64,000 bases of DNA. It comes from Candidatus Doudnabacteria bacterium (GTDB lineage Bacteria; Patescibacteriota; JAQUNI01). This document shows positions 526-63,601 of the stretch, in pieces. Where the stretch lies: contig JBAZQX010000001.1 in NCBI GenBank assembly GCA_041644975.1, positions 39,274 to 103,273 of the forward strand, read 5' to 3'. The position numbers and the translations under genes are program-made. The first letter of the stretch is position 1. Each line of letters opens with the position of its first letter. The notes below the pieces were generated by a model that saw only the letters and a program-made list of their open reading frames with translations, was not told the DNA's origin and made no database searches.

Positions 526-1599
526 TTATTTCGGCGGCGTGCCCATGCCGATTAATCCCACAATCAGGCCAACCAAACATCCCAAAACCGCGATGATCCA
601 GAAGCGCATCACAACTTGAGGCTCGGACCATCCCTTGGCTTCAAAATGATGATGAATAGGGCTCGAGAGAAAAATTTTTTTCTTGAATGCCTTTTTGGCC
701 GTATATTGCAAAATCACGGACGCGGATTCAATCACTAGCACAATGCCAATCAGAGGAAGAACAAGCGCGGAATTGGTAAGCATCGCGATAATTCCTAAAG
801 TGGTCCCGAGGCTCATCGCGCCCGTATCGCCCATAAAAAAGCGCGCGGGATAGATATTAAACCATAAGAAGGCTAGAAGAGCGCCGGCAATGGTGCCGCA
901 AAAGGCGGCTAACTCAATTCTGCCTTTGGCAAAAGCGATGACACCGAAACTGGCAAAAGCGAAAAGGAGAACACCGCCGGCAAGACCGTCAAGACCGTCG
1001 GTTTCATTAGTGGAAAAAGAAGTCGCTACCATAATTAAAATAAAAAGCGGAATGTACCACCAGCCGATAGGAAAATCGCCAATGCCGGGAATGTGAATGA
1101 CGTCCCAGGCAAGTTTGTAATAAAACCACCAGGCGCCGAATATAGCCACAATCGTGTAAAGGATTAACCGATGCCGCATACGCAGTCCTCCTCCTTTGGG
1201 TCCTATCTTAAAAACATTTAAGAGATCATCCACGGCGCCGACCAAAGCCGTCGCGACTAATGCTCCGAGGGGGAGAAGCGTTTGCGGTCGGGTTAAGAAA
1301 TTCAGATAGTGAAAAAGGGGAATATGGGTTAATTTATCCAAGGCAAAGAACAGAATCGCCAGAAATAAAACCGTGATCCAAATCAGCATTCCTCCCATCG
1401 TAGGCGTGCCTTCTTTTTTTTGGTGAAGTTTTGTATAAAGAGGAGCGCCGTCGGTGCGGATGCTCTTGCCAATTTTGTACTTTTTTAAAACTTTGATCAA
1501 GAAAGGGGTCCATAAAATAGCGATCAAGAAAGAAAGTCCGGATAACACAAAAATCTTGGTGAGTCCCGGAAAATATTGCATACCTTGAGTCGTATCCAT
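526..1599 (-). CDS. mraY: phospho-N-acetylmuramoyl-pentapeptide transferase
   Basis: The 357-aa polytopic protein carries HQKKEGTPTMGG and VDDLLN motifs typical of MraY. Confidence 0.9.
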   Translation of the reverse strand: MDTTQGMQYFPGLTKIFVLSGLSFLIAILWTPFLIKVLKKYKIGKSIRTDGAPLYTKLHQKKEGTPTMGGMLIWITVLFLAILFFALDKLTHIPLFHYLNFLTRPQTLLPLGALVATALVGAVDDLLNVFKIGPKGGGLRMRHRLILYTIVAIFGAWWFYYKLAWDVIHIPGIGDFPIGWWYIPLFILIMVATSFSTNETDGLDGLAGGVLLFAFASFGVIAFAKGRIELAAFCGTIAGALLAFLWFNIYPARFFMGDTGAMSLGTTLGIIAMLTNSALVLPLIGIVLVIESASVILQYTAKKAFKKKIFLSSPIHHHFEAKGWSEPQVVMRFWIIAVLGCLVGLIVGLIGMGTPPK

Positions 1600-1700
1600 T
1601 GTTCAACTGTTCTATTGTTCAATTGTCGCATTGTTTTAAAGCCGTGTTCTTTTTCAGAAAAGATTAACAATGAAGCAATGAAGCAATGAAACATTTTCTA
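1600..1700. repeat. intergenic palindrome of tandem units (attgttcaactgttctattgttcaattgtcgcattgtt ... aacaatgaagcaatgaagcaatgaaac)
   Basis: Direct reading. Confidence 0.6.
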
Positions 1701-1743
1701 TATAAAAAGATTAGGATATAATTCTAAAATTTGGATGGCGCGC

Positions 1744-2649
1744 TTATTTCCATTGGTAAGCCCGGAAAGTCCAATTGATTAATCCCTTGGATTCCTGCCA
1801 TTCATTTTTGCTGTTCATTACAACCGTGATAATTTCATGGCCTCTTTTATCCGAAGCTACCTCAATAAGGCAATATCCGGCATTATCCGTGAATCCTGTT
1901 TTACCGCCAATAATATTGAGATAAGAGCTTTGCAATAATTTGTTGCTGTTTTTAAGGAAACGGTCGCGGATATTTGTTGTAAAACCAATAGTGGGAGTAT
2001 TAATGATTTCACGAAAAACTTTTTTCTCTAGAGCATAACGAGTAATCTCGGCCAGATCGTAAGCCGAGGAGTAATGCCCTTCGGCATCAATACCATGCGT
2101 ATTTTTAAAATGGGAATCCTTTAATCCAAGGATGCGCGCTTTTTGGTTCATTAAATCCACGAATTTTGTTTCACTTCCCGCAATGTATTCCCCCAAAGCT
2201 ACTCCCGCGTCATTAGCAGAAGACATTAGAAGACCGCGAAGCAGATTGTAAACCGAGATTTTTTCTCCAGGAGCAAGGCGCATATGCGCGCCTTGCGGCT
2301 GCACGTATGCCGGGCCTTTTCCTACGGTTACGATATCATCGGGTTGCGGGGAGTTATCCATGACTGTTACGGCGGTCATAATTTTAGTCAAGCTCGCTTG
2401 CGGCAGTTTTTGGTGGATGTTCTTCGCGAAGAGCACCTTGCCCGATTCCTTATCCAAAACAATGGCGGCTGTCGCAGTCATTTTTACTCCCAGCATCTTC
2501 GGATTTTTGATTGGTCCTTTTGATGTTTGCGCCGCCAGTATTTCTTGCTTCACGGGTTCTTTCGCTTGGAGCGGCAGACGCGCGCCTTGCGCCGGCATCA
2601 GATAATTAGAAGCGAGGAGAGTGATAAGACTGGTAAATTGAAGTAACAT
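1744..2649 (-). CDS. D-alanyl-D-alanine carboxypeptidase (peptidase S11, low-molecular-weight PBP)
   Basis: It has an N-terminal signal peptide and the SLTK (SxxK), SAND (SxN) and KTGFT (KTG) active-site triad. Confidence 0.8.
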   Translation of the reverse strand: MLLQFTSLITLLASNYLMPAQGARLPLQAKEPVKQEILAAQTSKGPIKNPKMLGVKMTATAAIVLDKESGKVLFAKNIHQKLPQASLTKIMTAVTVMDNSPQPDDIVTVGKGPAYVQPQGAHMRLAPGEKISVYNLLRGLLMSSANDAGVALGEYIAGSETKFVDLMNQKARILGLKDSHFKNTHGIDAEGHYSSAYDLAEITRYALEKKVFREIINTPTIGFTTNIRDRFLKNSNKLLQSSYLNIIGGKTGFTDNAGYCLIEVASDKRGHEIITVVMNSKNEWQESKGLINWTFRAYQWK

Positions 2650-2652
2650 TAT

Positions 2653-2690
2653 AATTAGGAATCAGGAATTAGGAATCAGGAATTATGAAA
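2653..2690. repeat. tandem aggaatcaggaatt repeats. The reverse-complement unit (attcctgatt) occurs at 481-525.
   Basis: Direct reading. Confidence 0.6.
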
Positions 2691-2713
2691 ATAAGTTTCT
2701 GCTTCCTTATTTA

Positions 2714-3232
2714 TTATTCCTCATTCCCTTTGTTAAATTCATTATATTTTGGTAATTTTATAGCCTCGCTTAAACCCAAATGGCGTAGAAAATCGGCAGT
2801 AATTTGGTATTCAACTTTTTTCCCTTTAATTTTTCTTTCCACCAATCCTCGGCGCAAGAGATTACGCAGGACAAAAATTGAATTGACGCCGCGGATTTCT
2901 TCGATTTGATAACGTGAGACAGGGCCTTTGTAGGCAATAATTGCCAGAGTTTCTAGGGCAAGCGTGGAAAGTTCCCCGCGTAAATCCTTTTGCTGATATT
3001 TTTGGATCCAAACAGCGTAATGGGGATTGCTGACCATCTGAATTTGACCATTGTGTTCCAAGATCATTATTCCTCTCCGGGAGCAATCTTTCTTCATCAC
3101 GGCAAGCGCTTCTTCTATATCCTGCGTTTTAACATTTAAAATTCGCGCCAGTTTTTCAATGCTTTCTTTTTGGGTGGACACAAAAAGCATTGCTTCTAAG
3201 ATCGCCGGCAGGTTATTTTGAAGACTATCCAT
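2714..3232 (-). CDS. scpB: segregation and condensation protein B
   Basis: The 172-aa protein has the N-terminal LEAMLFVS signature and the overall ScpB winged-helix pattern. Confidence 0.75.
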   Translation of the reverse strand: MDSLQNNLPAILEAMLFVSTQKESIEKLARILNVKTQDIEEALAVMKKDCSRRGIMILEHNGQIQMVSNPHYAVWIQKYQQKDLRGELSTLALETLAIIAYKGPVSRYQIEEIRGVNSIFVLRNLLRRGLVERKIKGKKVEYQITADFLRHLGLSEAIKLPKYNEFNKGNEE

Positions 3233-3261
3233 ACTATAGATCTTTTACAAAATAACCTTTT

Positions 3262-3310
3262 CTACCCACGCACCAGTCCGCTAAAGGCGGACGGCGCGGG
3301 GTTTCACTGC
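3262..3310. repeat. partial copy of the conserved hairpin + GGGGTTTCAC motif (cagtccgctaaaggcggacggcgcggggtttcac), ~65 nt upstream of the scpB start
   Basis: The hairpin gtccgc/gcggac plus ggggtttcac is similar to copy 1 at 39066-39161. Confidence 0.4.
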
Positions 3311-3409
3311 AATTGCCAGATTTCGTAGCGAAAAATTATTTCGCAAAAGGTCTTATATTTTTATTGTTGATATTAATTATTCTAGCAGAGAAAGAGAGGA
3401 AGATAAATA

Positions 3410-3440
3410 TTGACAAAATATGAATTATGTTGTTTAAAAT
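3410..3440 (+). promoter_or_regulatory. candidate sigma70-like promoter (TTGACA, 17-19 nt spacer, TAAAAT) inside the long divergent intergenic region
   Basis: TTGACA lies at ~3410-3415 and TAAAAT at ~3435-3440. This is the only long (490 nt) spacer at the strand switch between scpB (-) and the glycan operon (+). Confidence 0.25.
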
Positions 3441-3518
3441 GTTAATTTACCTCATTAGAGAAAGTTCATCTCGTTACGAATTCATTTGTAACGGGATGGT
3501 CATCACCACTTAAAGCGA

Positions 3519-3581
3519 GAGAACCGTTAGCCCCTGTTGGAAATAAATTTTTAAACGGGGTTAGAAAATGAGGTTCTCTAA
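3519..3581 (+). other. long imperfect stem-loop (agagaacc...ggttctct outer stem, cccctgtt/aacgggg inner stem); a possible structured RNA or regulatory element
   Basis: The inverted repeats are visible in the sequence. It sits ~100 nt downstream of the candidate promoter and is followed by a T-run at ~3595-3600. Confidence 0.3.
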
Positions 3582-3602
3582 TGGGGTTTATTTGCTTTTT
3601 TA

Positions 3603-3733
3603 GCTAATTTATGGCACAATGTGGAATCTCGTAGTTAGTAATTAGTAATCAGCAATAGAGGTCAATCCGCCGCGAAGCGGCGAAAGTTACTGAGATTACC
3701 GGTTGCTAGTTACCAATTACCAGTTACTATTTT
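3603..3733. repeat. AT-rich inverted tandem repeats (agtaattagtaatcag ... ctagttaccaattaccagttact) flanking a GC hairpin ccgccgcGAAgcggcg
   Basis: Direct reading. The same gtaatcagtaat unit recurs at 9953-9975. Confidence 0.6.
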
Positions 3734-5182
3734 ATGTTCTCCGAACTCAAAAAATTATTCAAGCATTCGGGTATTTATGCGGTTGGTGCGACTGCACAGG
3801 TCGCACTTTCTTTTTTGTTAATTCCTTTTTATACGCGATATTTGAGTCAAGCAGACTATGGACGTTTGGAAATTCTACAAACCCTTTTAAAAGTTTTGTT
3901 GTTTTTAATCCCTTTAGGATTGCCTTCGGCAATTTTAAAGTGTTATCACCGCGATGCCAAAAGCCAGACCGAGCGTAGAATTCTCACGAGCACGGCCTTC
4001 TTTTCCGTTCTTGTGGCGGGGTTGTTGCAGTCTTTGATCTTGCTTTTTTTTGTGCATCCTTTGGGGCAGTTTCTGATTAAAATAAATTTTGGTTTATTGA
4101 TTTATACCGTGCTTGCCACTTCCCTTTTTGCTGCTCTACTGGAATTAGAACTTTCTTTTTTGCGCGCAGAAGAGCGATCTCGCTCCTATACCGTGATTTT
4201 TTTATTACGTTTTATTCTAACTTTGGGAATCACCATATATCTCGTAGTGGGCCTCAAATGGGGTCTTTTTGGCGCTCTTTTGGGTAATTTAGTGGCCCAA
4301 ATTTTCACCTTCCTTACTTTCTTGCCATATCTCAAAAACTATGTTAAAATTAGCTATTCTAAGTTTGCCTTGACAAAATTGTTATCTTTTGGTCTAGCCA
4401 TTTTGCCTGCCTCAATTGCGATGTGGGTTATGGATCTGTCTGATCGTTATTTTTTAAGTCATTTCGGCACTTTGGAGATGGTGGGTGTTTATTCGGTGGG
4501 TTATCGTATTGGTTTTATTTTGGAGTTTGTTTTAGTCATCCCTTTTCAGCTTGCTTGGCCTTCTTTTTCCTTTCGGATTGCCAAACACAAAAATCATCAG
4601 CAGATTTACGCACGCACTTTAACCTATTTTTTCTTCATTGGTATATTTAGCTTTTTAGTTTTATCCTTCTTTGCCCCGGAAATCGTGAAGATTATTGTAC
4701 CAAAGAATTACGCGAGCGCCGCGTTAATTGTTCCCCTTGTCGCTTTGGCTTATGTGTTTTATGGGATGCATTTTGTGGTGGCGCCTGGTATTCATCTAAG
4801 AGGGAAAACAAAATATTATCCCCTGGTGATTGTTTTTCCCGCGGCTTTAAATATTTTTTTAAATTATTTGCTTATTCCTATTTATGGAATGTGGGGCGCT
4901 GCCGAAGCGACCTTGATTGCTTTTATTTTCGTTTTTATCCTGACCTATTTTGTTTCTAACCATTTTTATCCCGTGCGCTACGAATGGAAGAGATTATTGA
5001 AAATTGCGATAACAGGCTTAGCGGTTTTTGGTTTTTCCGTGCTTTATCCTATGTCCCATGCTACGATCGCAGCGATATTGATTAAAATTGGGTTATTAAT
5101 TTTATTTTTAATCTTGCTTTGGGGTGAAAGATTTTTTGAGAAAGAAGAGAGAGAAAAAATAAAAGAATTTCTCAAGCTGTAA
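3734..5182 (+). CDS. polysaccharide/oligosaccharide flippase (Wzx-like, MOP/PST superfamily)
   Basis: The 482-aa protein has ~12-14 predicted TM helices and sits as the first gene of a glycan operon. The composition is typical of Wzx. Confidence 0.55.
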   Translation: MFSELKKLFKHSGIYAVGATAQVALSFLLIPFYTRYLSQADYGRLEILQTLLKVLLFLIPLGLPSAILKCYHRDAKSQTERRILTSTAFFSVLVAGLLQSLILLFFVHPLGQFLIKINFGLLIYTVLATSLFAALLELELSFLRAEERSRSYTVIFLLRFILTLGITIYLVVGLKWGLFGALLGNLVAQIFTFLTFLPYLKNYVKISYSKFALTKLLSFGLAILPASIAMWVMDLSDRYFLSHFGTLEMVGVYSVGYRIGFILEFVLVIPFQLAWPSFSFRIAKHKNHQQIYARTLTYFFFIGIFSFLVLSFFAPEIVKIIVPKNYASAALIVPLVALAYVFYGMHFVVAPGIHLRGKTKYYPLVIVFPAALNIFLNYLLIPIYGMWGAAEATLIAFIFVFILTYFVSNHFYPVRYEWKRLLKIAITGLAVFGFSVLYPMSHATIAAILIKIGLLILFLILLWGERFFEKEEREKIKEFLKL

Positions 5183-5246
5183 TTCGCAACTTAAAAGATA
5201 ATTCACCTTGTGTTTATAAATTATACGTTATAAGTTATAAGAATTT

Positions 5247-6198: not shown

Positions 6199-6633
6199 AT
6201 GTTGCGCATACCAGCAATTATATTTTTGTTAATTATTATTATTGCTCTCGGCGCGTACGCCGCTTGGCAAGGTCCGCGCGGGGAGATTACTTCTTGGGAA
6301 GCCGTGGCCGCTCCCGAAAAGTATGAGGGTCGCGAGATTAAGGCTGGCTACAATCGCATTATCGGAGGGGGAGGCAGCTACTGGACTGTTGGCCCCTTCG
6401 GTCATTATGTTGTTTTAAAAATTGATCCTCGCCTTTCATTGGAGCCGGGGAATTTTATTAGCTACCAAGGTCAAGTCCGAAAAGATGGCTATATTGAAAC
6501 AAACGAAATTTATATTCACAAAGAGCGAGGTTTTAAATATTTAGTCTCGCTGATCCCTTTATTTGTGATTCTATTCTGGTTTGGGAGAGAATATAGGTTT
6601 AATCAGCGCAAGTTTTATTTTGAAGAAAAGTGA
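6199..6633 (+). CDS. hypothetical bitopic membrane protein (N- and C-terminal TM helices with a ~95-aa exported domain)
   Basis: The ORF has this hydrophobicity pattern. No family was recognised. Confidence 0.4.
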   Translation: MLRIPAIIFLLIIIIALGAYAAWQGPRGEITSWEAVAAPEKYEGREIKAGYNRIIGGGGSYWTVGPFGHYVVLKIDPRLSLEPGNFISYQGQVRKDGYIETNEIYIHKERGFKYLVSLIPLFVILFWFGREYRFNQRKFYFEEK

Positions 6634-6785
6634 AGCTCCACGGGTTCACGCTCGTAGTATTTTTTATAATGGGATTTTGTGGAGCGAAACCCCGCACCAG
6701 AAAGCCACCATTCATCCACTAATTTATGAAATACTCTCACTGTGGCACCCGTGGCTTTCTGGTGCGCCGGGTAAGTTTTAAAACT

Positions 6786-7259
6786 ACTATGCCTGATCTA
6801 ATTTCACATTGTTTGGTCAGCAGGATATTATTTTTTGGTAAGTTCAAAAAATATTTACTACTCTTTTTAATTGGCGCCATTCTTCCTGATGTTTTGACGC
6901 GGGCTCCCCTCTTTTTTTTCAGCGGGTGTTATCGTTGCGCTTGGTGGATTGGCGTTTTCCATTCCCCTCTTCCTCTTTTTTTTGTTGTTTTACTTTTTAG
7001 TTTATTTTTCAAAAGAGTGAAAGAGGCTTTTGGAGCTTTGTTTCTAGGCGTTCTCTTGCATTTATTTTTTGATTCTTTCCAGAGACATTTGGGCGGCGGC
7101 TATTACTGGCTGTTTCCTTTTTCTTTTCAGACCGCGGAATGGGGTCTCATCTGGCCGGAAACAAGTTTAAATTTTATTCCTCCACTGTTATTGCTTACTA
7201 TTTTAGTTTATGGCTTTGAATTATATTTTAAAGGGAGAAAGATAAGGCGGGAAAATTAA
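6786..7259 (+). CDS. hypothetical polytopic membrane protein (possibly DUF457-like membrane-bound hydrolase); start taken at the internal Met of the track ORF 6726..7259
   Basis: MPDLISHCLVS...GAILPDVLTR resembles the H...PD pattern of YdjM-like proteins. This is weak. Confidence 0.3.
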   Translation, partial: TMPDLISHCLVSRILFFGKFKKYLLLFLIGAILPDVLTRAPLFFFSGCYRCAWWIGVFHSPLPLFFVVLLFSLFFKRVKEAFGALFLGVLLHLFFDSFQRHLGGGYYWLFPFSFQTAEWGLIWPETSLNFIPPLLLLTILVYGFELYFKGRKIRREN

Positions 7260-8755: not shown

Positions 8756-9952
8756 TTGCTTAATTGTTCAATTATTAAATTACCTATGCGCATCCTTTTT
8801 ATTACGCGCAAGCATCCCCCTACTATTGGTGGTATGCAGAACCTGTCCTATAACCTTATTCAAAATTTTCTGAAGCAAGGCAGAGAAAGGGGCGACCAGA
8901 TAGAGACAATTATTCTTAACAAGAGTCAGTGGCATTTATTTTGGTGGTTTCCTTATGCTTTATTCTTAACTTTGGTTAAAGCAAGGACAGTGGATATTGT
9001 TCATTTAGGCGATCCTGTCATTTTTTTAATTGGTTTTTTAGCGCGCGTGTTTTACCATAAAGCCGTCGCGGTAACGATTCATGGTTTGGATGTAACCTTT
9101 AATCTCTTTTTATACCAGTGGTATTTAAAACTTTTTGGTCGAAAGTTTGATCGTTATATTTGCATTTCCAGCTATGCCCGGGAAGAAGCGCGAAAGGTAG
9201 GTTTTTCTCCTTGCGTGGTGATTCCTGTTGGCGTGGACAGCAAGAAGTGCAAAGTGCCTGCCCGCCATCGCTTCGCCCGCCCGCAACGCCTTGCGGCTAG
9301 CATGGCGGGCGCGGCTTCAGGCGAGGCGGGCGGGCAAAGTGCAAAGTGCAAAGTTTTGGAAAAACATTTTTTACAGAAACATTTTTTGCCAATTGCTAGT
9401 TTTAAGTTATTAACCGTAGGGCGGTTGGTAAAACGTAAAGGAGTATTTTGGTTTATTCAAGAAGTTATGCCATGTTTACCCAAAGAGATTACTTATTTAG
9501 TAGTGGGAGAAGGGCCGGAACGTGAGAGAATTAAAATCTTGATTCAAGAGAGAGGTTTAGAGGAAAGAGTTTATCTCTTAGGTAAAGTTTCCGAAGAGGA
9601 TTTAAAAACAGTTTATAGCCTCGCTGATTTGTTTATTATGCCTAATATTAAGGTCCAAGGGGATGTTGAAGGGTTTGGACTTGTGGCTGTGGAAGCGGCT
9701 CAAAATGGTCTACCTGTCATTGCCGCGGGTATTGAAGGCATCCGTGATGCGGTGGTTTCGGGACGTAATGGTATTTTGGTGGAGTCAGAAAACCCTGATG
9801 CTTTTCGGAAGCAGATCTTGGAGTTCTTAAGGAACCAGGAATACAGAAAGAGTTTTGGTTATCAAGCCGCGCAATTCACGATGGAAACCTATGATTGGCA
9901 AATAATCGCCAAGCGGTATTACGAGGAATTTTTAAGGGTAATTAGTAGTTAG
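8756..9952 (+). CDS. GT4-family (GT-B) glycosyltransferase carrying an in-frame GC-rich insertion. The likely start is the Met at ~8786.
   Basis: It has VIPVGVD ... VGRLVKRKG ... EGFGLVAVEAAQNGLPVIA (EX7E). There is a ~30-aa GC-encoded insert between the GVD and VGRL motifs. Confidence 0.75.
   Translation: MLNCSIIKLPMRILFITRKHPPTIGGMQNLSYNLIQNFLKQGRERGDQIETIILNKSQWHLFWWFPYALFLTLVKARTVDIVHLGDPVIFLIGFLARVFYHKAVAVTIHGLDVTFNLFLYQWYLKLFGRKFDRYICISSYAREEARKVGFSPCVVIPVGVDSKKCKVPARHRFARPQRLAASMAGAASGEAGGQSAKCKVLEKHFLQKHFLPIASFKLLTVGRLVKRKGVFWFIQEVMPCLPKEITYLVVGEGPERERIKILIQERGLEERVYLLGKVSEEDLKTVYSLADLFIMPNIKVQGDVEGFGLVAVEAAQNGLPVIAAGIEGIRDAVVSGRNGILVESENPDAFRKQILEFLRNQEYRKSFGYQAAQFTMETYDWQIIAKRYYEEFLRVISS
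9258..9334. repeat. GC-rich palindromic mini-element, family A (core CCTGCCCGCCATCGCTTCGC...CTTCAGGCGAGGCGGGCGGG), lying inside a coding sequence
   Basis: It is >75% GC in an AT-rich gene. It is flanked by the direct repeat caaagtgc (~9250-9257 and ~9335-9342). The core reappears at ~62324-62363. Confidence 0.7.
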
Positions 9953-9971
9953 TAATCAGTAATCAGTAACT

Positions 9972-11006
9972 ATGAAAATTGCCATTATCTTCCCACGGCT
10001 TTCTGGTCCTTATGGTGGGGAAAAAATATTGATTAAGGTGACTGACGAATTAGTTAGATTAGGGCACACAGTCACCCTTTATGTTTATGAATATAATGCG
10101 CTCTGCGCGTCCCATCTTAATCCACACATTACGGTAGTCCATTCACGAGCATTCAAATTCGGACGACATAACCTAGATACCTTTTTTGCTTATTTAGCGA
10201 TGCCCTGGCTGGCCAATAAGATCCTGTGTGATTATGAGCTTATTTTGGGAATGACTTGGCAGGCGGCTTTCGCGCTGTGGTGGCTTCGCAAGGTGCGTAG
10301 ATGTTTTCGTCAAACCCCTTTGGTTTACCATTGTTTTGAGCCGCCGCGTTTTATTTATGATCTTCAAACCGTGACAGGCAACTCTTTACTTGCCCGTTTA
10401 ACCGCTTTTTTTATAAAACGGATTGACCGCACAAGCGTGCGAGCGGCGGATGTGATTATCAGTATTTCTGACTATATCCAAAAACAAGTGAAAAAAGTTT
10501 ATAACCGCGATTCAGTGAAGATTTATCCGGGCGTGGAAATTGAACGTTTTCAAAAATACACGCGGAGAGAGGCCAGGGAGATTTTAAATATTCCTTTGGA
10601 TCGGGAAGTTTTTTTGTCAATCTCAAAGTTACATAAAAGAAAGAGGTTGGATCGAGCCTTGGAAATTTTTCAAAAAAGAAGGAAGGACCAAAACTCGGTA
10701 TTTTATATCGCGGGTCAAGGTCCTGAAGAGGGTAATCTAAAATATTTAGTCAAACAAATGCATTTGGAAAAAGTGGTTAAGTTTATTGGCGTGGTTTTAG
10801 GGGAAAAGACGGTTCAATATATGGCGGCGTGCGATTATTTTATCTTTACTGCCTTAAATGAACCTTTTGGTATCGCCCCCTTGGAAGCCAAAGTGGCGGG
10901 CGCGAAAGTGATTCCCCGAGAGCGTCCTTATCCTATTCTGAATTGGCAAGAATCGGCGGGAAAGATGCACAGAGTATTTTTAAAATTAGTAACTAGTCGT
11001 TCGTAA
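9972..11006 (+). CDS. GT4-family glycosyltransferase
   Basis: It has the C-terminal EPFGIAPLEAKVAGAKVI (EX7E) motif and a GT-B layout. Confidence 0.7.
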   Translation: MKIAIIFPRLSGPYGGEKILIKVTDELVRLGHTVTLYVYEYNALCASHLNPHITVVHSRAFKFGRHNLDTFFAYLAMPWLANKILCDYELILGMTWQAAFALWWLRKVRRCFRQTPLVYHCFEPPRFIYDLQTVTGNSLLARLTAFFIKRIDRTSVRAADVIISISDYIQKQVKKVYNRDSVKIYPGVEIERFQKYTRREAREILNIPLDREVFLSISKLHKRKRLDRALEIFQKRRKDQNSVFYIAGQGPEEGNLKYLVKQMHLEKVVKFIGVVLGEKTVQYMAACDYFIFTALNEPFGIAPLEAKVAGAKVIPRERPYPILNWQESAGKMHRVFLKLVTSRS

Positions 11007-13133: not shown

Positions 13134-13446
13134 GTTTAAAATGTAAAATGCAAAATGTAAAATGATAGTGTAAAATTTCAAAATGGGAATTTACCATTTA
13201 AGATTTTATTTAAAATTATTCTAATTAACCTAATTGTTCCTCAGTTAGAACACTTCGTTTCTAACGGGGCAAGCTAATTATTCTAAACCCCGTTAGAAAT
13301 TTTCAATTTCTAAACGGGGTAAATAAGCCCCAATACCCAATACCCAATAACCAATATCTAAAATTAATCTTTGTTATTCCTATTTGGTCATTGGTCATTT
13401 CTTAGGTTAATTAGGTCAATTAGAACAATTAGAATAATTTTTAGAT
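13134..13446. repeat. long AT-rich intergenic region organised as an imperfect palindrome of short tandem units (aaatgtaaaatg x3; aattattctaattaacctaattgttc mirrored by gaacaattagaataatt; ccaataccc x3 mirrored by ggtcattggtcatt)
   Basis: Direct reading. The exact 13-mer ctaattaacctaa pairs with ttaggttaattag. Confidence 0.7.
13257..13320 (+). terminator. candidate rho-independent terminator (stem ttctaacgggg / ccccgttagaa with a ~27-nt loop, then a T-rich tract)
   Basis: It is an 11-bp perfect inverted repeat downstream of the 11079..13133 stop and is followed by attttcaatttc. Confidence 0.35.
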
Positions 13447-16041: not shown

Positions 16042-17205
16042 ATGCTGATCGGCATTGATGCCTCGCGTGGTTTCTTAAAAAAACGCACGGGAGTGGAAGA
16101 ATATTCTTATCAAATCGTGCAGGCGTTAACAAAAGTTGATTCTCAAAATCAATATATTTTGTATTTAAACGGCCAAGAGAACAAGGAAGTGGCGCGAGGG
16201 ATTGCGTGGCCTTCAAATTTTAAATTTAAAAATATCCCTTTTCCAAGGCTTTGGGTGCATCTAGCTTTGTGTTTAATGGCTTGGCGGGATAAGCTTGATG
16301 TTTTGTTTATCCCGGCGCAGGCAATGCCAATTTTTTACCCGCGGAAAACTGTTGTTACTTTGCATGGTTTGGAATATGAGCATTACCCAGAAAGTTATTC
16401 TGTTTTTCGGCGTTTTTACCTCCGTTTTACAACGAAATTTAGCTTAAAGCATGCGGCGAAGATTATTGCTGTTTCGGAGAACACAGAAAAGGATTTGATT
16501 AAAATGTATGGTGGAGATGCGGAGAGAATTAAAGTGGTCTATCATGGTTTTAATATTATATTTCCCTCCCCCTCCATCTCCCCCTCGGGCAGGGGGAGTG
16601 ATAGCCCTCCCCTTTCCAAGGGGAGGTTGGGAGGGGTTCTGGAAATTAAAGACGGGGAAAATGATCAGTTATTTATTTTAACCATTGGCCGTTTGGAAGC
16701 GCGCAAGAATATTGTTAATTTAATTCGCGCTTTTGAACTGATAAAAAGAGAAGGCTGGACCGGGAAGTTGGTTTTAGTCGGTCAGCAGGGTTATGGTTAC
16801 ACAGAGATTAAGAGAGCGATACAAGATTCAGCCTATCAAGAAGATATTATTGAGAAAGGCTTTGTGAGTGAAGAAGAAAAATGGCAGATTTTGCAATCCG
16901 CCACGGCATTTGTTTTTCCTTCTTTTTATGAGGGTTTTGGCATGCCGCTTTTAGAAGCGTTCGCCGCGGATGTGCCGGTTGCGGTATCCAACACTTCTTC
17001 TTTGCCTGAAATTGGAGGAGACGCTTGCGTTTATTTTAATCCCGATAATGTTGACGATATAACGCGAAAGATAAGAGAGGTTTTAGAGAATAAAAACCTG
17101 CGTCAAAATTTGATCCAAAAGGGTCAAATGCGTTTAGCTAATTTTGGCTGGCAAAAGTGCGCTCTAGAGACCTTATTAATATTAGAAATAAGTCACCACA
17201 CTTAG
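16042..17205 (+). CDS. GT4-family glycosyltransferase carrying an in-frame GC-rich insertion
   Basis: It has VVYHGFN ... ILTIGRLEARKN ... EGFGMPLLEAFAADVPV (EX7E). An extra ~25 aa (FPSPSISPSGRGSDSPPLSKGRLGGV) is encoded by a GC-rich palindromic element. Confidence 0.75.
   Translation: MLIGIDASRGFLKKRTGVEEYSYQIVQALTKVDSQNQYILYLNGQENKEVARGIAWPSNFKFKNIPFPRLWVHLALCLMAWRDKLDVLFIPAQAMPIFYPRKTVVTLHGLEYEHYPESYSVFRRFYLRFTTKFSLKHAAKIIAVSENTEKDLIKMYGGDAERIKVVYHGFNIIFPSPSISPSGRGSDSPPLSKGRLGGVLEIKDGENDQLFILTIGRLEARKNIVNLIRAFELIKREGWTGKLVLVGQQGYGYTEIKRAIQDSAYQEDIIEKGFVSEEEKWQILQSATAFVFPSFYEGFGMPLLEAFAADVPVAVSNTSSLPEIGGDACVYFNPDNVDDITRKIREVLENKNLRQNLIQKGQMRLANFGWQKCALETLLILEISHHT
16563..16638. repeat. GC-rich palindromic mini-element, family B (CTCCCCC-N-GGGGGAG hairpins; contains gggcagggggagtg), lying inside a coding sequence
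   Basis: The hairpins are ctccccctcgggcagggggag and cctcccctttccaaggggagg. A 14-mer is shared with ~62414-62427. Confidence 0.7.
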
Positions 17206-19340: not shown

Positions 19341-19425
19341 AGTTGACTCCTCCCCTGATAAGGGGAGGACGGGAGGGGTTATTCGGAAGAGATAACCCCC
19401 TCTAACTCCCCCTTATCAGGGGGAG
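19341..19425. repeat. GC-rich palindromic mini-element, family B, at a gene junction (ctcccctgataaggggag ... gggaggggttattcggaagagataaccccctc ... ctcccccttatcagggggag)
   Basis: It is nested inverted repeats. It supplies the GGAGGAG Shine-Dalgarno sequence 7 nt upstream of the 18465..19340 start and encodes the last ~15 codons and the stop of 19379..20122. Confidence 0.7.
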
Positions 19426-21239: not shown

Positions 21240-23147
21240 CTATTTAAAATATTTGGTCAGCTTTTCTAGGGCGATAAAGAAACCCCGCCCTTCGCGTTGA
21301 TGACCCCGCCAAATTTCCGGAATCCAACCGTATTGATAGTCTTTAAATATTTTTTGGATTTTAGTCCAATCTATGTCCCCTTCCCCGATTTGCAATCCTT
21401 CCTCATCGGTGCCGTAGGCGTCAGAGATGTGCAGTTCGCGGACATAGGGTTTAATCCTTTGGAGTGCAGAATAAAAATCCTCCCCGATGAGATTGTAATA
21501 TAATTTTGCATGTGAAAGATCAAGAGTGCAATTAATGCGAGTCCGTTTGCAGAATTCCCGAATTTCATCCAGATCCACGAAGATGTTGTCTACCCATTGG
21601 CCGCCAAAATACCAAGGCCGGGGCGGCAGATTTTCAGGTAATAATTCCACGCCGCGACTATCTATTTTTTTTAGCGAATTTTCAAGGTTTTTCCAAAGCG
21701 TCCTTCGGCTTTTAATAGGGTCAATACTCATTCCGCCGGGATGAAAAACGATTTTGGGCTTAACAGGGACAAAATATTTTTTCATTTCCCTTGCTCGCTC
21801 TACGGTTTTTCGCATTATGGCAATGGCTTCGTCGCGTAATTCTTTTTCCGGGGAGCAAAGATCATTGATGGAGCGGAAATGATATTCGGGAGCGTGGATA
21901 TAAAGCGCGGCAGGATATTTTTGATTGGGTTTAAATTTGTATTCTAAATCTTTATCCGTAAAATGAAATTCTACCATTTTGGGATTCAAGGCCATCATTT
22001 GATCTAAATTGTGAAAACGTACTTTTAGCCCCCAGAAGGATTGAAAGTTTTTACTGAAATTAGATTGTTTCACTTTATGGATGTCGTTTTCTAAAAAGAG
22101 ATCATCTTTTTTGAAGTTTTTTTGCGCTCGTTTGCCAATTAGTGTATCCAGCAGTTGAGGCGACAAACCTTTGCCTGGGCTCTTAACGGCAATCATTTTG
22201 CGATGGATTATTTCCCCTTTTTTTATTTCTTCCGCGGCGACTAGGCTTTTTCCCAGAACCTCGCGGTTTAAGATTTCACCACGGCTCATATATTTTTTCC
22301 CGTCGCCCAAAGCTTGTTCCGTATAGCGGATATCGCGCACGAGGCGCTTAAAATCTTGGGCTTCTAGACTAGCGGCGTGATCTGGACCTTTCATAGAACG
22401 ATCCAGGGTTAAATGGCGTTCAATAATACTGGCCCCTAGTGTTGCGGCAACAATAGACATTGAAATACCCAGCTCATGACCGGAATAACCGACCGGGACA
22501 TTAAATTTTTGACGTAGGGTTTCTATAAAGCGCAGGTTTAATTTATCCCAGGGCGCAGGGTAAGTGGAAGAGCAATGCAGAAGCGCGAATTGGACCTTTT
22601 TCTTTTCCAAGAATCCTACTGTCTTTTCAATTTCATCTAAATAAGCCATTCCCGTTGCCACAATCATCGGTTTTTTGGTTGCCGCCACTTTTTCCAGAAG
22701 CGCAAAATTAGTAAGATCAGGGGACCCGATTTTGTATGCTGGGACCCGTAACTTTTCTAAAAATTCAGCGCTCTTAAGATCAAATGGCGTGCATAAAAAA
22801 GTAATTCCTTTCCGATCACAATATTTCTTTAAGAAAAAGAAATCTTCCTCCGTGAGTTCAAATTCGCGCAGCAAAGGAATCATGTATTGGAAATTTTGCT
22901 CGCCTAGGTTGGGGTTATCAAGTATTTCCTCGGTATAAATATGTTTCAGGTTTCTTTTTTGAAATTTAACCGCATCGGCCCCCGCACTAATCGCGACATC
23001 AACAAGTTGTTTGGCGATTTGCACCGAGCCATTATGATTGACCCCAATTTCGGCGACGATATAGCAAGGGTGTAGAGTGCCGATTTTTTTATTATCTATG
23101 GTAATCTCTTTGATCATAATATACTTCAAATCATAAATTCTAAGCAC
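21240..23147 (-). CDS. NeuB-family nonulosonic acid (sialic/legionaminic/pseudaminic) synthase fused to a SAF domain and a C-terminal xylose-isomerase-like TIM-barrel domain
   Basis: The N-terminus GTLHPCYIVAEIGVNHNGSVQIAKQLVDVAISAGADAVKFQKR is a NeuB signature. The SAF-like LVAAEEIKKGEII follows. The C-terminal ~280 aa has VEFHF / ELLPEN / LDLSHA / LHISD patterns of AP-endonuclease-2-type TIM barrels. The track start is a GTG; an internal ATG lies at ~23117. Confidence 0.7.
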   Translation of the reverse strand: MLRIYDLKYIMIKEITIDNKKIGTLHPCYIVAEIGVNHNGSVQIAKQLVDVAISAGADAVKFQKRNLKHIYTEEILDNPNLGEQNFQYMIPLLREFELTEEDFFFLKKYCDRKGITFLCTPFDLKSAEFLEKLRVPAYKIGSPDLTNFALLEKVAATKKPMIVATGMAYLDEIEKTVGFLEKKKVQFALLHCSSTYPAPWDKLNLRFIETLRQKFNVPVGYSGHELGISMSIVAATLGASIIERHLTLDRSMKGPDHAASLEAQDFKRLVRDIRYTEQALGDGKKYMSRGEILNREVLGKSLVAAEEIKKGEIIHRKMIAVKSPGKGLSPQLLDTLIGKRAQKNFKKDDLFLENDIHKVKQSNFSKNFQSFWGLKVRFHNLDQMMALNPKMVEFHFTDKDLEYKFKPNQKYPAALYIHAPEYHFRSINDLCSPEKELRDEAIAIMRKTVERAREMKKYFVPVKPKIVFHPGGMSIDPIKSRRTLWKNLENSLKKIDSRGVELLPENLPPRPWYFGGQWVDNIFVDLDEIREFCKRTRINCTLDLSHAKLYYNLIGEDFYSALQRIKPYVRELHISDAYGTDEEGLQIGEGDIDWTKIQKIFKDYQYGWIPEIWRGHQREGRGFFIALEKLTKYFK

Positions 23148-23149
23148 TA

Positions 23150-23260
23150 AATCCTAAACAATATCTAAATTCAGAATCTAAAATTCAAAACTATTTTGAA
23201 TTTAGAGCTTTAGATTTTGAATTTGTTTAGAATTTAGGATTTAGAATTTAGGGTTTCTTT
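23150..23260. repeat. intergenic palindrome of tandem ctaaat/tctaaa units (aatcctaaacaatatctaaattcagaatctaaaattcaaa ... tttgaatttagagctttagattttgaatttgtttagaatttaggattt)
   Basis: Direct reading. Confidence 0.65.
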
Positions 23261-39065: not shown

Positions 39066-39170
39066 TGTCCGCTTGAGGCGGATGACACAGGATTTCGCTT
39101 TTCTTAAAAAATCCCTCTTGGAGCCGATGCTTATGAACCGTAAGTCTATGGAGGGTTTCACTTCATAGAG
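39066..39170. repeat. conserved intergenic two-hairpin motif, copy 1 (tccgcttgaggcgga; ggatttcgcttttcttaaaaaatccc; gatgcttatgaaccgtaagtctatggagggtttcac)
   Basis: Related copies are at 51757-51830, 55746-55815 and a partial copy at 3262-3310. The first stem shows compensatory changes between copies (ggattt/aaatcc versus gggtttc/gaaaccc). Confidence 0.6.
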
Positions 39171-51756: not shown

Positions 51757-51830
51757 AGTTTCGCCTTCTAAAATTCCGTCTGGACCTGATGCTCATGAGC
51801 TGTCAGGCCGGGGAGGGTTTCACTCTGAGT
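51757..51830. repeat. conserved intergenic two-hairpin motif, copy 2 (agtttcgccttctaaaatt ... gatgctcatgagctgtcaggccggggagggtttcac)
   Basis: See copy 1. It lies ~260 nt upstream of the radical SAM gene start. Confidence 0.55.
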
Positions 51831-55745: not shown

Positions 55746-55815
55746 GGGTTTCGCCCTTACTGAAACCCCATTCGGAGTAGATGCTTATGAGCCGTGAAGT
55801 CGTGGAGGGCTTCAC
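55746..55815. repeat. conserved two-hairpin motif, copy 3 (gggtttcgcccttactgaaaccc ... gatgcttatgagccgtgaagtcgtggagggcttcac), overlapping the 3' end of the 55757..56968 CDS
   Basis: The last ~18 codons (EALHDFTAHKHLLRMGFQ) and the stop of the upstream gene are encoded by the motif. Confidence 0.55.
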
Positions 55816-56968
55816 ATTTTTGGATAATAAGGTTAAAGACCCGTTCACTTGACCGACCATCTAAAAAGGTAAGCATTTTTTGACAGGTTTTGCGCCGTCC
55901 TCCCTGGTTCAAATCTGGACGGACTAGATATTGATTAATTGCCGCGAGGAATTGTTTTTTATTTTTAACCACTGTGGTTCCCTGCTCCGTAATGATGTCT
56001 TGATAATGTTCTTTAAAATCGCGGTACACCGCGCTTTTGCGCCAGCGCCAAAAGTCAAATGGTTTACTAAACATTACATTGATGGTCGGCGTGTCGCCGA
56101 GCATTGATTCTATGGCCGCTGTGGAAGAGAAATTGACCATAAGATCGCTATTAATCCAAAGGCTCACGAGCATATACATATCTTGATCCGTAGGATTATA
56201 TTTGAACAAAGGGTGCGGAGTAGAATCCTTTCTGCCAAAGCTATAACGCAGTTTGACTTTATATTTATTCGCATACCGTTCATGTTTAATAATGTTTCCT
56301 CCGGGATGAACCGAACAATAAATTTCCACAGGCATTTTGATTTTTCCTTGATCGCGCGCTTCGGCAATGATTTTGACTACATAGGAGATATCATAAAGTT
56401 CAACCGTCGCAATGTGAATTAACTTTTTTTTGGGGTTAACATTAAGGTAATGGCATAATTCTTCGCGCGAAGGGATTTTATCTTTATGCCAAAAGTAATC
56501 AAGGCGCGGCGAACCAACTATGTGAATTTGGTTGTCTTTGTAGCCAAAGATTCTTTGCGCATGTTCCTTCATCATTTCGTTCCAAACCAAGAGGGTATTC
56601 ACTTTGACCATTTCATTTTGGCGGCGTTCCATTTTCCAGATATTATCCCAGCTTTCTATATAAGTGAGCGTGGGAATTTTGCGTTTTTTTGCTTCCTTTA
56701 GAATAGGGATATCACATTCGTCAAGACCAGTGGTTGTGGAAACAACAAGCGTGGGTTGGTATTGTTTAAAGATAGAAGGTTTCCAGGCAACAAAAATAAA
56801 ACCCGAGCCTTGAAATTCGCGAGTGAGGTCCGGATATCTACTCATCGGGCTGACAATAATTAATTTTATTTTTTGCTCCCGAATTGCTTGTTCAAAAAAA
56901 GGTCGCAACGGTTTAAGAAGCGCGCGGGAGTGAGAGCCCGAGGGAACGGATAAAAAAATGGTCTTCAT
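55757..56968 (-). CDS. GT-B-like protein, possibly CDP-glycerol/CDP-alcohol glycerophosphotransferase (TagF-like) or capsule biosynthesis protein
   Basis: The ~400 aa have a two-Rossmann-like layout. CSVHPGG is an HP motif reminiscent of TagF. The call is weak. Confidence 0.3.
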   Translation of the reverse strand: MKTIFLSVPSGSHSRALLKPLRPFFEQAIREQKIKLIIVSPMSRYPDLTREFQGSGFIFVAWKPSIFKQYQPTLVVSTTTGLDECDIPILKEAKKRKIPTLTYIESWDNIWKMERRQNEMVKVNTLLVWNEMMKEHAQRIFGYKDNQIHIVGSPRLDYFWHKDKIPSREELCHYLNVNPKKKLIHIATVELYDISYVVKIIAEARDQGKIKMPVEIYCSVHPGGNIIKHERYANKYKVKLRYSFGRKDSTPHPLFKYNPTDQDMYMLVSLWINSDLMVNFSSTAAIESMLGDTPTINVMFSKPFDFWRWRKSAVYRDFKEHYQDIITEQGTTVVKNKKQFLAAINQYLVRPDLNQGGRRKTCQKMLTFLDGRSSERVFNLIIQKCEALHDFTAHKHLLRMGFQ

Positions 56969-61533: not shown

Positions 61534-62082
61534 TTGCACTTATGGGGAATACAGCATCTTGCATTTTGTTTGTATTGGAAAAGGAGAATTATAATGGAAA
61601 ATAGTGAAGGACGAATTCAGGTGTGGGGCGACACAGCTATTCTTGTCAATCTGGACGCGCCGCCAGAATTGCCTTTTGACAAAGCGATTATTGAACCAAA
61701 GATAGGTAGAGGTAGTGGTTGGGTTAAAGTTGAAAAGTGCGAGGATGGATTGTATATAAATGACCATAGGGTTATTCTGTATCTATCCGAACAGCAGAAG
61801 GGCGGGAAAGTGATTAGCGGCTTCAAGCTGAACGAGGAGCTTTTAGGAAAGCCCGTGCTTCATCCAAATATTTTAGATGCTCTTCTTGAGCATTTAGACC
61901 TCATTCCGGAGGATTGGAAAAAGCGTTACCTCTATATATTTTTTTGGGCAGTCATTTTCCGCGACTCCGATGGCCGTTTCTTTGTCCGTTTCCTATATTT
62001 CGACGGCGAGCGGTGGCAATGGGGCTACAGCGGGATCTACGTTGGCTGGGATAACGACGACCCCGCGGCGTTGCTCGTCTGA
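61534..62082 (+). CDS. hypothetical soluble protein. The likely start is at ~61594, preceded by AAGGAG.
   Basis: It is an ORF with a good Shine-Dalgarno (aaaggagaattataATG). No family was recognised. The 3' half is noticeably GC-richer than its neighbours. Confidence 0.4.
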   Translation: MHLWGIQHLAFCLYWKRRIIMENSEGRIQVWGDTAILVNLDAPPELPFDKAIIEPKIGRGSGWVKVEKCEDGLYINDHRVILYLSEQQKGGKVISGFKLNEELLGKPVLHPNILDALLEHLDLIPEDWKKRYLYIFFWAVIFRDSDGRFFVRFLYFDGERWQWGYSGIYVGWDNDDPAALLV

Positions 62083-62247: not shown

Positions 62248-62475
62248 CTTAACCTTAAATTACGAAATTCACTTTGTCTATTAGCGAGCGATTTTTTCCT
62301 CCCCTTGACCTGCGGGAGGTTAGCCTGCCCGCCATCGCTTCGCTTCAGGCGAGGCGGGCGGGGAAGGGTCTAATAAATGACTATTCTCCCTCCCCCTCTT
62401 ATCTCCCCGCTCAGGGCAGGGGGAGTGTAATCAAGTTTTTCGCAATGACGACATATTTCGTAATTCATAGTATCT
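62248..62475. repeat. composite repeat region: a copy of the cysN 5' flank (cttaaccttaaattacgaaattcactttgtctattagcgagcg ... tttcgtaattcatag) whose interior is occupied by GC-rich elements (a hairpin at ~62298-62319, the family A core at ~62324-62363 and a family B segment at ~62386-62427)
   Basis: Direct comparison with 31155-31255. The terminal inverted motifs are ATTACGAAA and TTTCGTAAT. Confidence 0.6.
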
Positions 62476-63601
62476 TTAATAATTTTTCTTTTGATTTTGC
62501 GTAATTGTTTTCAGAGAGTTTTTGAGAGGCGAGTTGTTGGATGTTTTGATAAAATGTGGAATCAGAAATTAATTTTTCCGCAAGCTCTATCCCCTGCCCT
62601 GTCCCCGCAATATCGGGAATGGACAGTTCGGGGAAGAATTCTAATTGGTTATTGGCGTTTATGCCGATACTAGGCGTGCCTACGGCGGCGCAATCAGCCT
62701 GTAAGCGACCCAAGGTCCAAGTCTGGTCCGTATTAATTACCAGGAAAAAGCATGCGAGTCTTTTTAAGTTTTCCTGCCACTTTAAGAAAGGAATAATCTC
62801 AAAGCGGGCATGCGCCGTTTTTAGTGGGGCAATATTTGAATGGGGGTAATCTATTACCTGGATCAAAAACTCTGGATATTTTTTTTGGATTTGAACTGCG
62901 GCGAATTGGCCAGCGAGATTATCTGTTCGCTCGGTTTCTCCGGCCACGAGAATAATTTTTTCTTTTTTTTCTCTTTTTTTAAAAAACCGGTCGGCATATT
63001 CAAAGGGATAGAATTGCGGAAAATAAGCTACTTTGGTGTGAAGAAAGGATTGGAGATAATCCTGCGCGTCGCGATTCACATTAATAAAAATATCACAATT
63101 ATTAGCAAAGGTTTTAAAAGCGCGAAATTCATTTTCCTTTTTCCAGACCTCGCGCAACGTTCCTAGAGGACTGACAATGGAACCTAAATAGATCGCGTCA
63201 GGATTGATTTTTTTTGTTTTTCTGATTAAATCTGCCATTAGAGGCATAGAGAAGCTGTGCACCAAGAACAAAATAAGATTAAATTTTTTAAGATAATCCA
63301 AATTGCGATAGATTGGTTTTTTTTGAATCTTTTCCAGGGACAGATCTAGTTTGCGGCCGAGTTTATAGGAAAGAGTATGTGGATTTTGATGGCGGCGCAA
63401 AAAGTTGACTGGGATATGCTCGCCAGAGAGCGCCGATGTCCAACAGCCAAAAGAAGTGGGGTCAATTTCCGTTTCAGGATCGCAGAGATAATTAGGTTTT
63501 TCCGGGGTTGGCCGCCAAATCCTCCCTGTTTTGGTGGAATATTCAATACAGGCAAATCTCATTTTTTCTATAGATTTTTGGAAAATTTTATTCTTGGACA
63601 T
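62465..63601 (-). CDS. hypothetical protein, possibly a GT-B-fold glycosyltransferase
   Basis: It is 378 aa. The C-terminal region TDQTWTLGRLQADCAAVGTPSIG resembles a GT-B donor-binding region. The call is weak. Confidence 0.3.
   Translation of the reverse strand: MSKNKIFQKSIEKMRFACIEYSTKTGRIWRPTPEKPNYLCDPETEIDPTSFGCWTSALSGEHIPVNFLRRHQNPHTLSYKLGRKLDLSLEKIQKKPIYRNLDYLKKFNLILFLVHSFSMPLMADLIRKTKKINPDAIYLGSIVSPLGTLREVWKKENEFRAFKTFANNCDIFINVNRDAQDYLQSFLHTKVAYFPQFYPFEYADRFFKKREKKEKIILVAGETERTDNLAGQFAAVQIQKKYPEFLIQVIDYPHSNIAPLKTAHARFEIIPFLKWQENLKRLACFFLVINTDQTWTLGRLQADCAAVGTPSIGINANNQLEFFPELSIPDIAGTGQGIELAEKLISDSTFYQNIQQLASQKLSENNYAKSKEKLLKIL

Follow-up and report, generated by a model that had tools for sequence, protein, structure and literature searches.

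The stretch analysed here, hereafter the window, comprises 64,000 nt of a Candidatus Doudnabacteria genome; its overall GC content is 39% and its gene content is that of a cell-envelope glycosylation region. One of its genes encodes a GT4 glycosyltransferase of the GT-B fold, whose coding sequence carries an in-frame, GC-rich palindromic segment of 78 nt. We found that this segment is a lineage-specific insertion made of two nested elements, and that a stand-alone copy of the outer element lies elsewhere in the window. The features concerned are the following, L001 and L004 being the two closest orthologous loci.

8786..9952, forward strand: host gene, GT4 (GT-B fold) glycosyltransferase of 388 amino acids, P0001 (open reading frame (ORF), Pfam, AlphaFold2)
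9243..9256, forward strand: upstream heptamer units (GAAGTGC AAAGTG), a pre-existing linker array and not a target-site duplication (comparison with L004)
9257..9334, forward strand: composite GC-rich insertion of 78 nt or 26 codons, with the inner hairpin nested in the outer (ortholog comparison, folding, predicted local distance difference test (pLDDT) <50)
9257..9275, forward strand: 5' half of the outer 39-nt element, CCTGCCCGCCATCGCTTCG (exact match to 62324-62342)
9276..9314, forward strand: inner 39-nt hairpin element, CCCGCCCGCAACGCCTTGCGGCTAGCATGGCGGGCGCGG (homologous to the 45-nt insert of L001; family termini)
9315..9334, forward strand: 3' half of the outer 39-nt element, CTTCAGGCGAGGCGGGCGGG (exact match to 62343-62362)
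9335..9354, forward strand: downstream heptamer units, CAAAGTG CAAAGTG CAAAGT (Tandem Repeats Finder: period 7, 3.0 copies, 100% matches)
62324..62362, forward strand: stand-alone, intergenic 39-nt copy of the outer element (exact match of both arms)

Between positions 9257 and 9334 the GC content reaches 78.2%, as against 40.1% in the remainder of the GT4 gene, and the element is read in frame as ...KV PARHRFARPQRLAASMAGAASGEAGG QSAKCKV.... This bears out the initial annotation, which had described a GC-rich palindromic segment lying in frame within an AT-rich GT4 gene, although the interval it gave (9247-9353) also takes in flanking heptamer units, the element proper being confined to 9257-9334. 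Each of the outer 20-nt arms has an exact match, at 62324-62343 and at 62343-62362 (expected matches 0 in 100 shuffles), in the spacer of the convergent genes 61594-62082 (+) and 62465-63601 (-), where the copy adjoins C-run/G-run hairpins. The proposed recurrence of the palindromic core near 62324 is thus exact in both arms, but what that copy lacks is 39 nt and not 36, and this middle part is no spacer. It is a second hairpin of the same family, which has entered the outer hairpin where stem and loop meet. When joined, the two outer halves CCTGCCCGCCATCGCTTCG and CTTCAGGCGAGGCGGGCGGG give the same sequence as the stand-alone copy; the boundary between outer and inner element near 9275 is ambiguous by one C. 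The 78-mer folds as a long, stable hairpin whether it is treated as RNA (-54.9 kcal/mol, z = -4.1) or as DNA (-29.3), and the 39-mer reaches -29.8 kcal/mol as RNA (z = -5.7).

Several other readings of the segment were set aside. A third match in the window, which starts at 44572 and has 3 mismatches, falls on the GEAMAC motif of a different GT4 gene and is no copy of the element, and the EAMAGR reading of the reverse complement of the 5' arm was taken as a coincidence. We rejected the intein/intron and CRISPR repeat readings (there is no CRISPR array), as well as an integron attC site, the latter by inspection only, its R'/R'' motifs being absent. No Rfam family scored at the gathering threshold in the window and none was found on the element at E<=1 in the contigs L005, L009 and L015; the window holds no tRNAs.

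The 18 best homologs of the GT4 protein were aligned, followed by the DNA of L001 and L004. The L004 ortholog (81% protein identity) has an empty site, ...AAGTT AAGAGTT AAAAGTG / AAAAGTT AAAAGTTTT, the slash marking the point of insertion. The L001 ortholog (83% identity) holds only an inner-type hairpin of 45 nt, CCCGCCCGCAACGCCTTGCAAGCTCGGCTTGCATGGCGGGCGCGG, which differs from the 39-nt inner hairpin of the window by a 6-nt indel and 1 mismatch; this inner-only allele is identical in three independent assemblies, L001-L003. Two of the checks that had been suggested, on homologs and on empty sites in sister genomes, agree on a lineage-specific insertion. Furthermore, the non-element DNA between the anchors GGCGTGGACA and AAGTTTT amounts to 33 nt in all three alleles, which means that the insertions add exactly 45 or 78 nt and duplicate no bases.

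The sequence caaagtgc, found on both flanks of the element, had been put forward as an 8-bp target-site duplication (TSD). It belongs to a (CAAAGTG)n array, of which 2 units precede the element and ~2.6 follow it. The heptamer array, (AAAGTKN)5, is also present in the empty L004 allele (AAGTT AAGAGTT AAAAGTG AAAAGTT AAAAGTT), and the K.K.KS.K.KV motif that it encodes can be followed in homologs down to ~55% identity. Since the empty site already carries the array, caaagtgc is not a TSD, and this part of the initial annotation has to be abandoned: the array predates the insert and nothing was duplicated. Within the array, the insertion lies 17 nt in for the window and 24 nt in for L001, one heptamer unit apart. 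Because the two sites differ in this way, the window composite was probably acquired independently of the L001 inner copy, unless the array slipped on both sides.

At the protein level, the window product is 100% identical to the database protein P0001, which is recorded for a Candidatus Doudnabacteria MAG (metagenome-assembled genome). Pfam assigns residues 49-153 to Glyco_transf_4 and residues 205-364 to Glycos_transf_1, and the 78-nt insert corresponds to residues 158-183, between these two domains. An AlphaFold2 model built on the 18-sequence alignment of best homologs has a mean pLDDT of 86.9 and a predicted template modelling score (pTM) of 0.83, with pLDDT <50 at residues 158-162 and 164-184. 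This low-confidence stretch is bounded by the last strand of the N-domain and by a helix (186-198) leading into the C-domain; solved GT4 structures align to the host protein only outside the insert stretch. The domain boundaries and the low pLDDT at 158-184 both uphold the placement of the insert in the GT-B interdomain linker, and the insert is predicted to form a disordered surface loop there. The linker itself is of low complexity, with heptamer repeats and an EKHFLQKHFL repeat.

Five comparisons of filled and empty sites could be made in all: the GT4 linker, the loop of the outer element, L001 6323 versus window 5214, a split palindrome and a split AT-rich element. Each shows an exact insertion with no duplicated bases. 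In the palindrome case, the 39-mer splits the otherwise perfect palindrome GACGAAGCAATCTCA...TGAGATTG / CTTCGTC in L009 and L015, and in the slightly diverged L026. The AT-rich element is intact at L001 8281-8379 and split by the 39-mer in L020, L022 and L027.

Insertion sites are strongly associated with tandem heptamers. In 11 of the 20 copies one flank or the other has a period-7 score at or above the 95th percentile of the background, where ~2 such copies would be expected (binomial p ~5e-7, or ~1e-5 with related loci collapsed). The same 39-mer stands between unrelated heptamers (AAAGTG, TTTTACA/AAATTTG, AAAAATT) and also in GC-rich palindromes free of heptamers. At the base level we observed a weak preference: the last two bases of the 5' flank are TG in 12 of the 20 copies, not all of which are independent, and otherwise TA, GG, AG or TC. 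Tandem arrays of 7-8 nt, each with its own unit, occupy many spacers of the window in their own right (for example 2653-2689, 5214-5241, 9938-9969, 13137-13185, 13329-13399 and 23128-23256, the last being two arrays in inverted orientation), and similar arrays fill spacers of other element-bearing contigs.

Members of the family measure 30-45 nt and share 9-bp inverted termini, CCYGCCCGC...GCGGGCRGG, around a variable interior that folds independently in each variant. The basal stem is invariant across members and hence offers no covariation support; to judge from the sequences, this invariance looks like a sign of sequence-specific end recognition and not of selection for RNA structure. We compared 20 kb of the window with the syntenic part of L001, the aligned DNA blocks being 85-93% identical, and found further presence/absence differences. 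A 36-nt relative, CCTGCCCGCTAACGCCTGCATGGCGTGGCGGGCGGG, lies at L001 6323-6358 and is absent from the corresponding place in the window (~5214, at the edge of a TTATAAG heptamer array). A 41-nt variant of the outer element, variant B (CCTGCCCGCTCACAAGCTTCGCTTCAGGCGAGGCGGGCGGG), lies at L001 9929-9969 in the spacer upstream of the GT4 gene, where it is flanked on both sides by AAAGTG-type heptamers, and is absent from the window and from L004.

The initial annotation had anticipated a dispersed palindromic family, and copies indeed extend beyond one gene, to the stand-alone copy in the window and to other contigs. The family is not confined to one genome either: there are copies in other lineages of the candidate phyla radiation (CPR), in a metagenome-assembled genome (MAG) of the Desulfobacterales and in viral contigs. 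One scan of species-representative genomes returned the exact 39-mer in a Saccharibacteria MAG. In the Desulfobacterales MAG, a 39-mer with one substitution near its 3' end lies at L006 6415-6453, on a contig of 54% GC, upstream of a 387-aa ORF that we read by eye as sucC. One metagenome scan gave exact or near-exact 39-mers in ~15 low-GC contigs, many from sample Ga0265296, and the 5'-half sequence also occurs in L005, L009, L015, L020-L023, L026 and L027. The other scan matches, in GC-rich contigs, are chance coding matches.

In viral contigs the outer 20-mer gave 0 matches and an inner 18-mer gave 7, all of them chance coding matches in GC-richer contigs. A gapped pattern of the termini returned at least 120 matches, mostly generic GC hairpins in contigs of 50-70% GC; a subset are true family variants, for example CCTGCCCGCCATCGCTCTCGCTCAGGCGAGGCGGGCGGG, and some of these are flanked by heptamers. 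One close variant lies at L152 ~8860-8900, at the start of a phage terminase gpA gene (8804-10945). In this terminase gene, a GC-rich stretch is also read in frame between the domains for ATPase and nuclease. When the 39-mer was compared by BLAST with the phages in GenBank and the plasmids in PLSDB, only partial matches at chance level emerged (E ~0.5).

The GT4 gene is not the only coding sequence to host these elements, and at the level of behaviour the analogy with the frame-preserving palindromes of Rickettsia, drawn from the outset, holds for MurC, an isoleucyl-tRNA synthetase (IleRS) and another GT4 linker. MurC of L015 contains the 39-mer in frame, again read as PARHRFASGEAGG, within a larger composite of nested palindromes; this stretch, residues 233-300 of the protein, has no alignment to solved MurC structures. 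A second copy in L015 probably lies within murG, at the contig end. The IleRS-type synthetase of L022 contains two members, one of 33 nt and one of 30 nt that is set between AAAATCA heptamers (peptide RLRRGFGGQ), alongside several further GC-rich inserts, and in L021 a copy may lie in an N-terminal extension or leader of lon. The MurC and IleRS copies lie in essential genes. All coding members are multiples of 3 nt, namely 39+39 and 45 in GT4, 39 in MurC, 30 and 33 in IleRS, and the variant in the other GT4 linker, and the coding copies examined are free of in-frame stops. The 41-nt variant B was found at four loci only, all of them intergenic. Reading of its sequence indicates that the 39-mer is open in 5 of its 6 frames.

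The L022 synthetase is unusual in other respects. Encoded at 846-4664, this CPR IleRS-type enzyme of 1272 aa is swollen by many in-frame segments derived from repeats, among them LLNGDCRVVPRGLGTPRND twice, K.KSEK runs encoded by heptamers, and PL..PLVRGG hairpins.

The other GT4 linker belongs to the gene at 16042-17205 of the window.

16563..16640, forward strand: hairpin family of the C-run/G-run type (TCCCCCTCGGGCAGGGGGAG; CCCTCCCCTTTCCAAGGGGAGG), in frame in the linker of this second GT4 gene (homolog comparison)

Homologs that are 65-84% identical carry differing inserts in this linker: P0128 (L036) is without one, and P0127 (L035) has a variant of the CCYGCCCGC family there. C-run/G-run hairpins are also intergenic, and were seen at window 62390-62440 and 19398-19415 and at L001 17815-17950.

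Further repeats were noted in the window, some of which distinguish it from its sister genome. An element resembling a miniature inverted-repeat transposable element (MITE), 125-181 nt long and with terminal inverted repeats GACCTTTTACAAAATAA.../...TTATTTCGCAAAAGGTC, is found at window 3233-3357 and at L001 11152-11332; a given copy is found in only one of the two genomes, the corresponding site of the other being without it, and the window copy holds a nested GC hairpin. A hairpin repeat family, CCCCGTTAGAAA...TTTCTAACGGGG, occurs at window 13239-13330 and 3446-3586 and is absent in L001; a hairpin similar to it adjoins the 39-mer in the Saccharibacteria contig (L005 ~500-540). A 60-nt direct repeat (CTTAAAAAATCCCTCTTGGAGCCGATGCTTATGA...GGAGGGTTTCACT) is present in three copies that are 67-73% identical (39103-39162, 51765-51824 and 55757-55816). 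Finally, L001 lacks window 6630-6770, a segment of 141 nt and 50% GC that contains the inverted repeat CACCAGAAAGCCAC...GTGGCTTTCTGGTG and overlaps the start of the ORF 6726-7259.

For the GT4 segment and its relatives, the comparisons show insertion, copy-and-paste dispersal, presence/absence polymorphism, nesting, conserved termini, the lack of a TSD, the preservation of frame and the association with heptamers. We favour, with some reserve, the explanation that the segment holds two copies, one nested in the other, of a non-autonomous palindromic repeat of very small size that is copied without a TSD. Such elements would be copied precisely into new sites, with a preference for landing in or beside tandem heptamer arrays, which are likely single-stranded or slipped, or within other hairpin elements. 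In a coding sequence, a copy would survive only if its length is a multiple of 3, if it brings no stop in frame and if the site tolerates extra residues; here the tolerant site would be the surface linker that joins the two Rossmann-like domains in the GT-B glycosyltransferase. Mobility would be catalysed in trans by an enzyme that recognises hairpins of single-stranded DNA (ssDNA), which would explain both why junctions are exact and why other hairpins serve as targets. As a tentative best guess, this enzyme could be an HUH/Y1 "peel-and-paste" transposase of the IS200/IS605 or RAYT (REP-associated tyrosine transposase) type, since exact, TSD-free insertion of hairpins into hairpins and repeat arrays is what such enzymes do.

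A number of observations weigh against this proposal. The window, a glycosylation gene cluster, contains no transposase or obvious mobile-element gene, and a crude regular expression for the Y1/HUH motif had no match in the six-frame ORFs of the loci examined, which are genome fragments. Copies were gathered with one exact 20-mer, so that counts are biased and incomplete. The window allele comes from a single assembly, the nested composite of outer and inner element was seen at no other locus, and its independent arrival is deduced from the position in the array. Likewise, it is from the preserved frame only that the 26-residue insert appears to be transcribed and translated.

The main rival explanation is that the hairpins might be passengers and the heptamer arrays the true mobile context, the spread between arrays being due to homologous or microhomology recombination, gene conversion or template switching and not to a transposase. 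We regard this as unlikely, but it would account well for the strong enrichment of copies at heptamer arrays and for insertions that leave no TSD. The outer element is moreover flanked on both sides by AAAGTG-type heptamers in two places, the window GT4 gene and the spacer upstream of the L001 GT4 gene, and the window array has been homogenised to CAAAGTG, which suggests conversion or slippage. It fits less well with the presence of the same 39-mer between unrelated heptamers and inside GC-rich palindromes without any, and the base-exact junctions at conserved termini are better matched by end recognition than by an exchange driven by homology. It is still less probable that the hairpin is a recruited cis-element kept by selection, be it a terminator or pause site, an RNA-stability or RNase site, a DNA-uptake site or a protein-binding site. 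The identity of the 39-mer across distant lineages, the great stability of the hairpin and the position of the stand-alone window copy between convergent genes, where a bidirectional terminator would be well placed, are what one would expect of such a site. No U/T tract follows the hairpin, however, and no Rfam family matches it; copies occur in both orientations, in essential ORFs and nested in repeats, and a terminator within MurC, IleRS or GT4 would be harmful. The presence or absence of the element also varies between genomes that are 85-93% identical across aligned DNA blocks.

That the insert escapes translation altogether, being excised from the mRNA or skipped over by the ribosome, appears very improbable to us. 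The model for it would be the byp hairpins of Magnusiomyces mitochondria, reportedly GC-rich and described by Lang et al. in 2014, and a stable GC-rich hairpin in an AT-rich coding sequence does recall them. Yet every coding copy examined is stop-free and a multiple of 3 nt long, the 41-nt variant lies only outside genes, and no intron or ribozyme family was detected with Rfam. As for an ancestral or locally generated linker, or an assembly artefact, the low complexity of the linker and the single assembly behind the window allele could be cited in its favour, but this reading is largely refuted: an ortholog of 81% identity has an empty site, the inner-only allele is identical in three independent assemblies, exact copies exist elsewhere, and both flanks belong to the same gene in the correct order and frame.

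We return to the nested, non-autonomous palindromic repeat, and to the known systems with which it may be compared. Rickettsia palindromic elements (RPEs) insert in frame into unrelated housekeeping genes as well as between genes, and the extra peptide is placed where the fold can accommodate it (PMC10969869). The elements described here resemble them in being palindromic, in having no coding capacity for mobility and in occurring both in intergenic regions and in frame in unrelated genes; a transposase is known for neither. This RPE-type behaviour is seen in GT4, MurC, IleRS and the second GT4 linker, together with many intergenic copies. In contrast, RPEs are ~100-150 bp long, form defined families and are restricted to Rickettsia, whereas our elements measure 30-45 nt, are GC-rich in genomes of ~40% GC, are nested and tied to heptamer arrays, and occur in CPR, in a Desulfobacterales MAG and in viral contigs. 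By unit size (39 and 39-45 nt) and by their Doudnabacteria (CPR) host they fall outside the RPE families, from which we set them apart by description.

Classical MITEs also fuse occasionally in frame with host ORFs (PMC10969869). Those of the Correia/NEMIS, ERIC and Nezha kind share with our family terminal inverted repeats (here of 9 bp), non-autonomy and such in-frame fusions; they differ in being typically 50-500 bp long and in the TSD left by a DDE transposase, against 30-45 nt and a TSD of 0 bp, as seen in the five filled/empty comparisons. No parent insertion sequence with the same termini was seen in the window or in the loci examined. Repetitive extragenic palindromic (REP) sequences and REPINs are short palindromes moved by RAYT (PMC3116915). 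With these and with IS200/IS605-type elements our family has in common imperfect palindromes of 20-40 nt, many dispersed copies and no TSD, and it does consist of a short, highly repeated imperfect palindrome. REPs, on the other hand, are extragenic, have a GTAG-type head and usually form inverted doublets beside a RAYT gene; here the head reads CCTG/CCCG (CCYG), the units stand singly or nested, several of the copies are inside ORFs, and neither the GTAG head nor extragenic doublets were found. Elements of the IS200/IS605 type insert 3' of a fixed tetra- or pentanucleotide; in our family the 5' flank shows only the weak TG preference noted above.

In behaviour, the systems nearest to our family are, besides the RPEs, certain cyanobacterial repeats and the GC clusters of yeast mitochondria. 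The small dispersed repeats (SDRs) SDR4-6 of Nostoc, described by Elhai et al. in 2008, are reported to be hairpins of 21-27 nt that often sit in heptamer arrays or in one another, with no known transposase. Compared by description only, they share with our family the very small hairpin units, the heptamer-array context and the nesting; they differ in size (21-27 nt) and in being elements of Nostoc and its relatives. The yeast clusters are likewise short GC-rich palindromes in an AT-rich genome, one of them in frame in var1; they differ in being organellar, in their reported short duplications of AT-rich flanks and in their unrelated sequence.

On the features compared, the family is outside the RPEs, MITEs and REPs. 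What distinguishes it is the combination of tiny size, GC-richness in low-GC genomes, no TSD, nesting, the link to heptamers, in-frame copies in essential genes and identical copies across lineages. A full-text literature search of incomplete coverage found no report of palindromic or in-frame repeats in CPR/Patescibacteria. Going further, the elements may represent an undescribed superfamily of hairpin mobile elements of 30-45 nt in CPR, with exact or variant copies also in a Desulfobacterales MAG and in several viral contigs, having fixed 9-bp termini and base-exact, TSD-free insertion into heptamer arrays and into one another, serving as a recurrent source of lineage-specific disordered inserts in essential proteins (glycosyltransferase linkers, MurC, IleRS), and moved by an unrecognised ssDNA-hairpin transposase or without any transposase. 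On this broader proposal we are close to evenly divided, with doubt slightly ahead.

If these readings are true, the colonisation of genes by in-frame palindromes, of which Rickettsia is the best-known case, would extend well beyond that genus to CPR. Some of the odd extra loops of CPR proteins would then be selfish DNA and not adaptations, which would matter for how these streamlined genomes are annotated, how structures are predicted from them and how their sequences are aligned for phylogeny. With its 39 nt, its exact junctions and the many pairs of filled and empty sites, the unit could serve as a very small model for a minimal mobile element and its enzyme, and the polymorphic insertions could be used as strain markers in the population genomics of uncultivated bacteria. 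Finally, the tie between hairpins and heptamers, which is reported for the cyanobacterial SDRs and is found again here in unrelated bacteria, hints at a shared mechanism.

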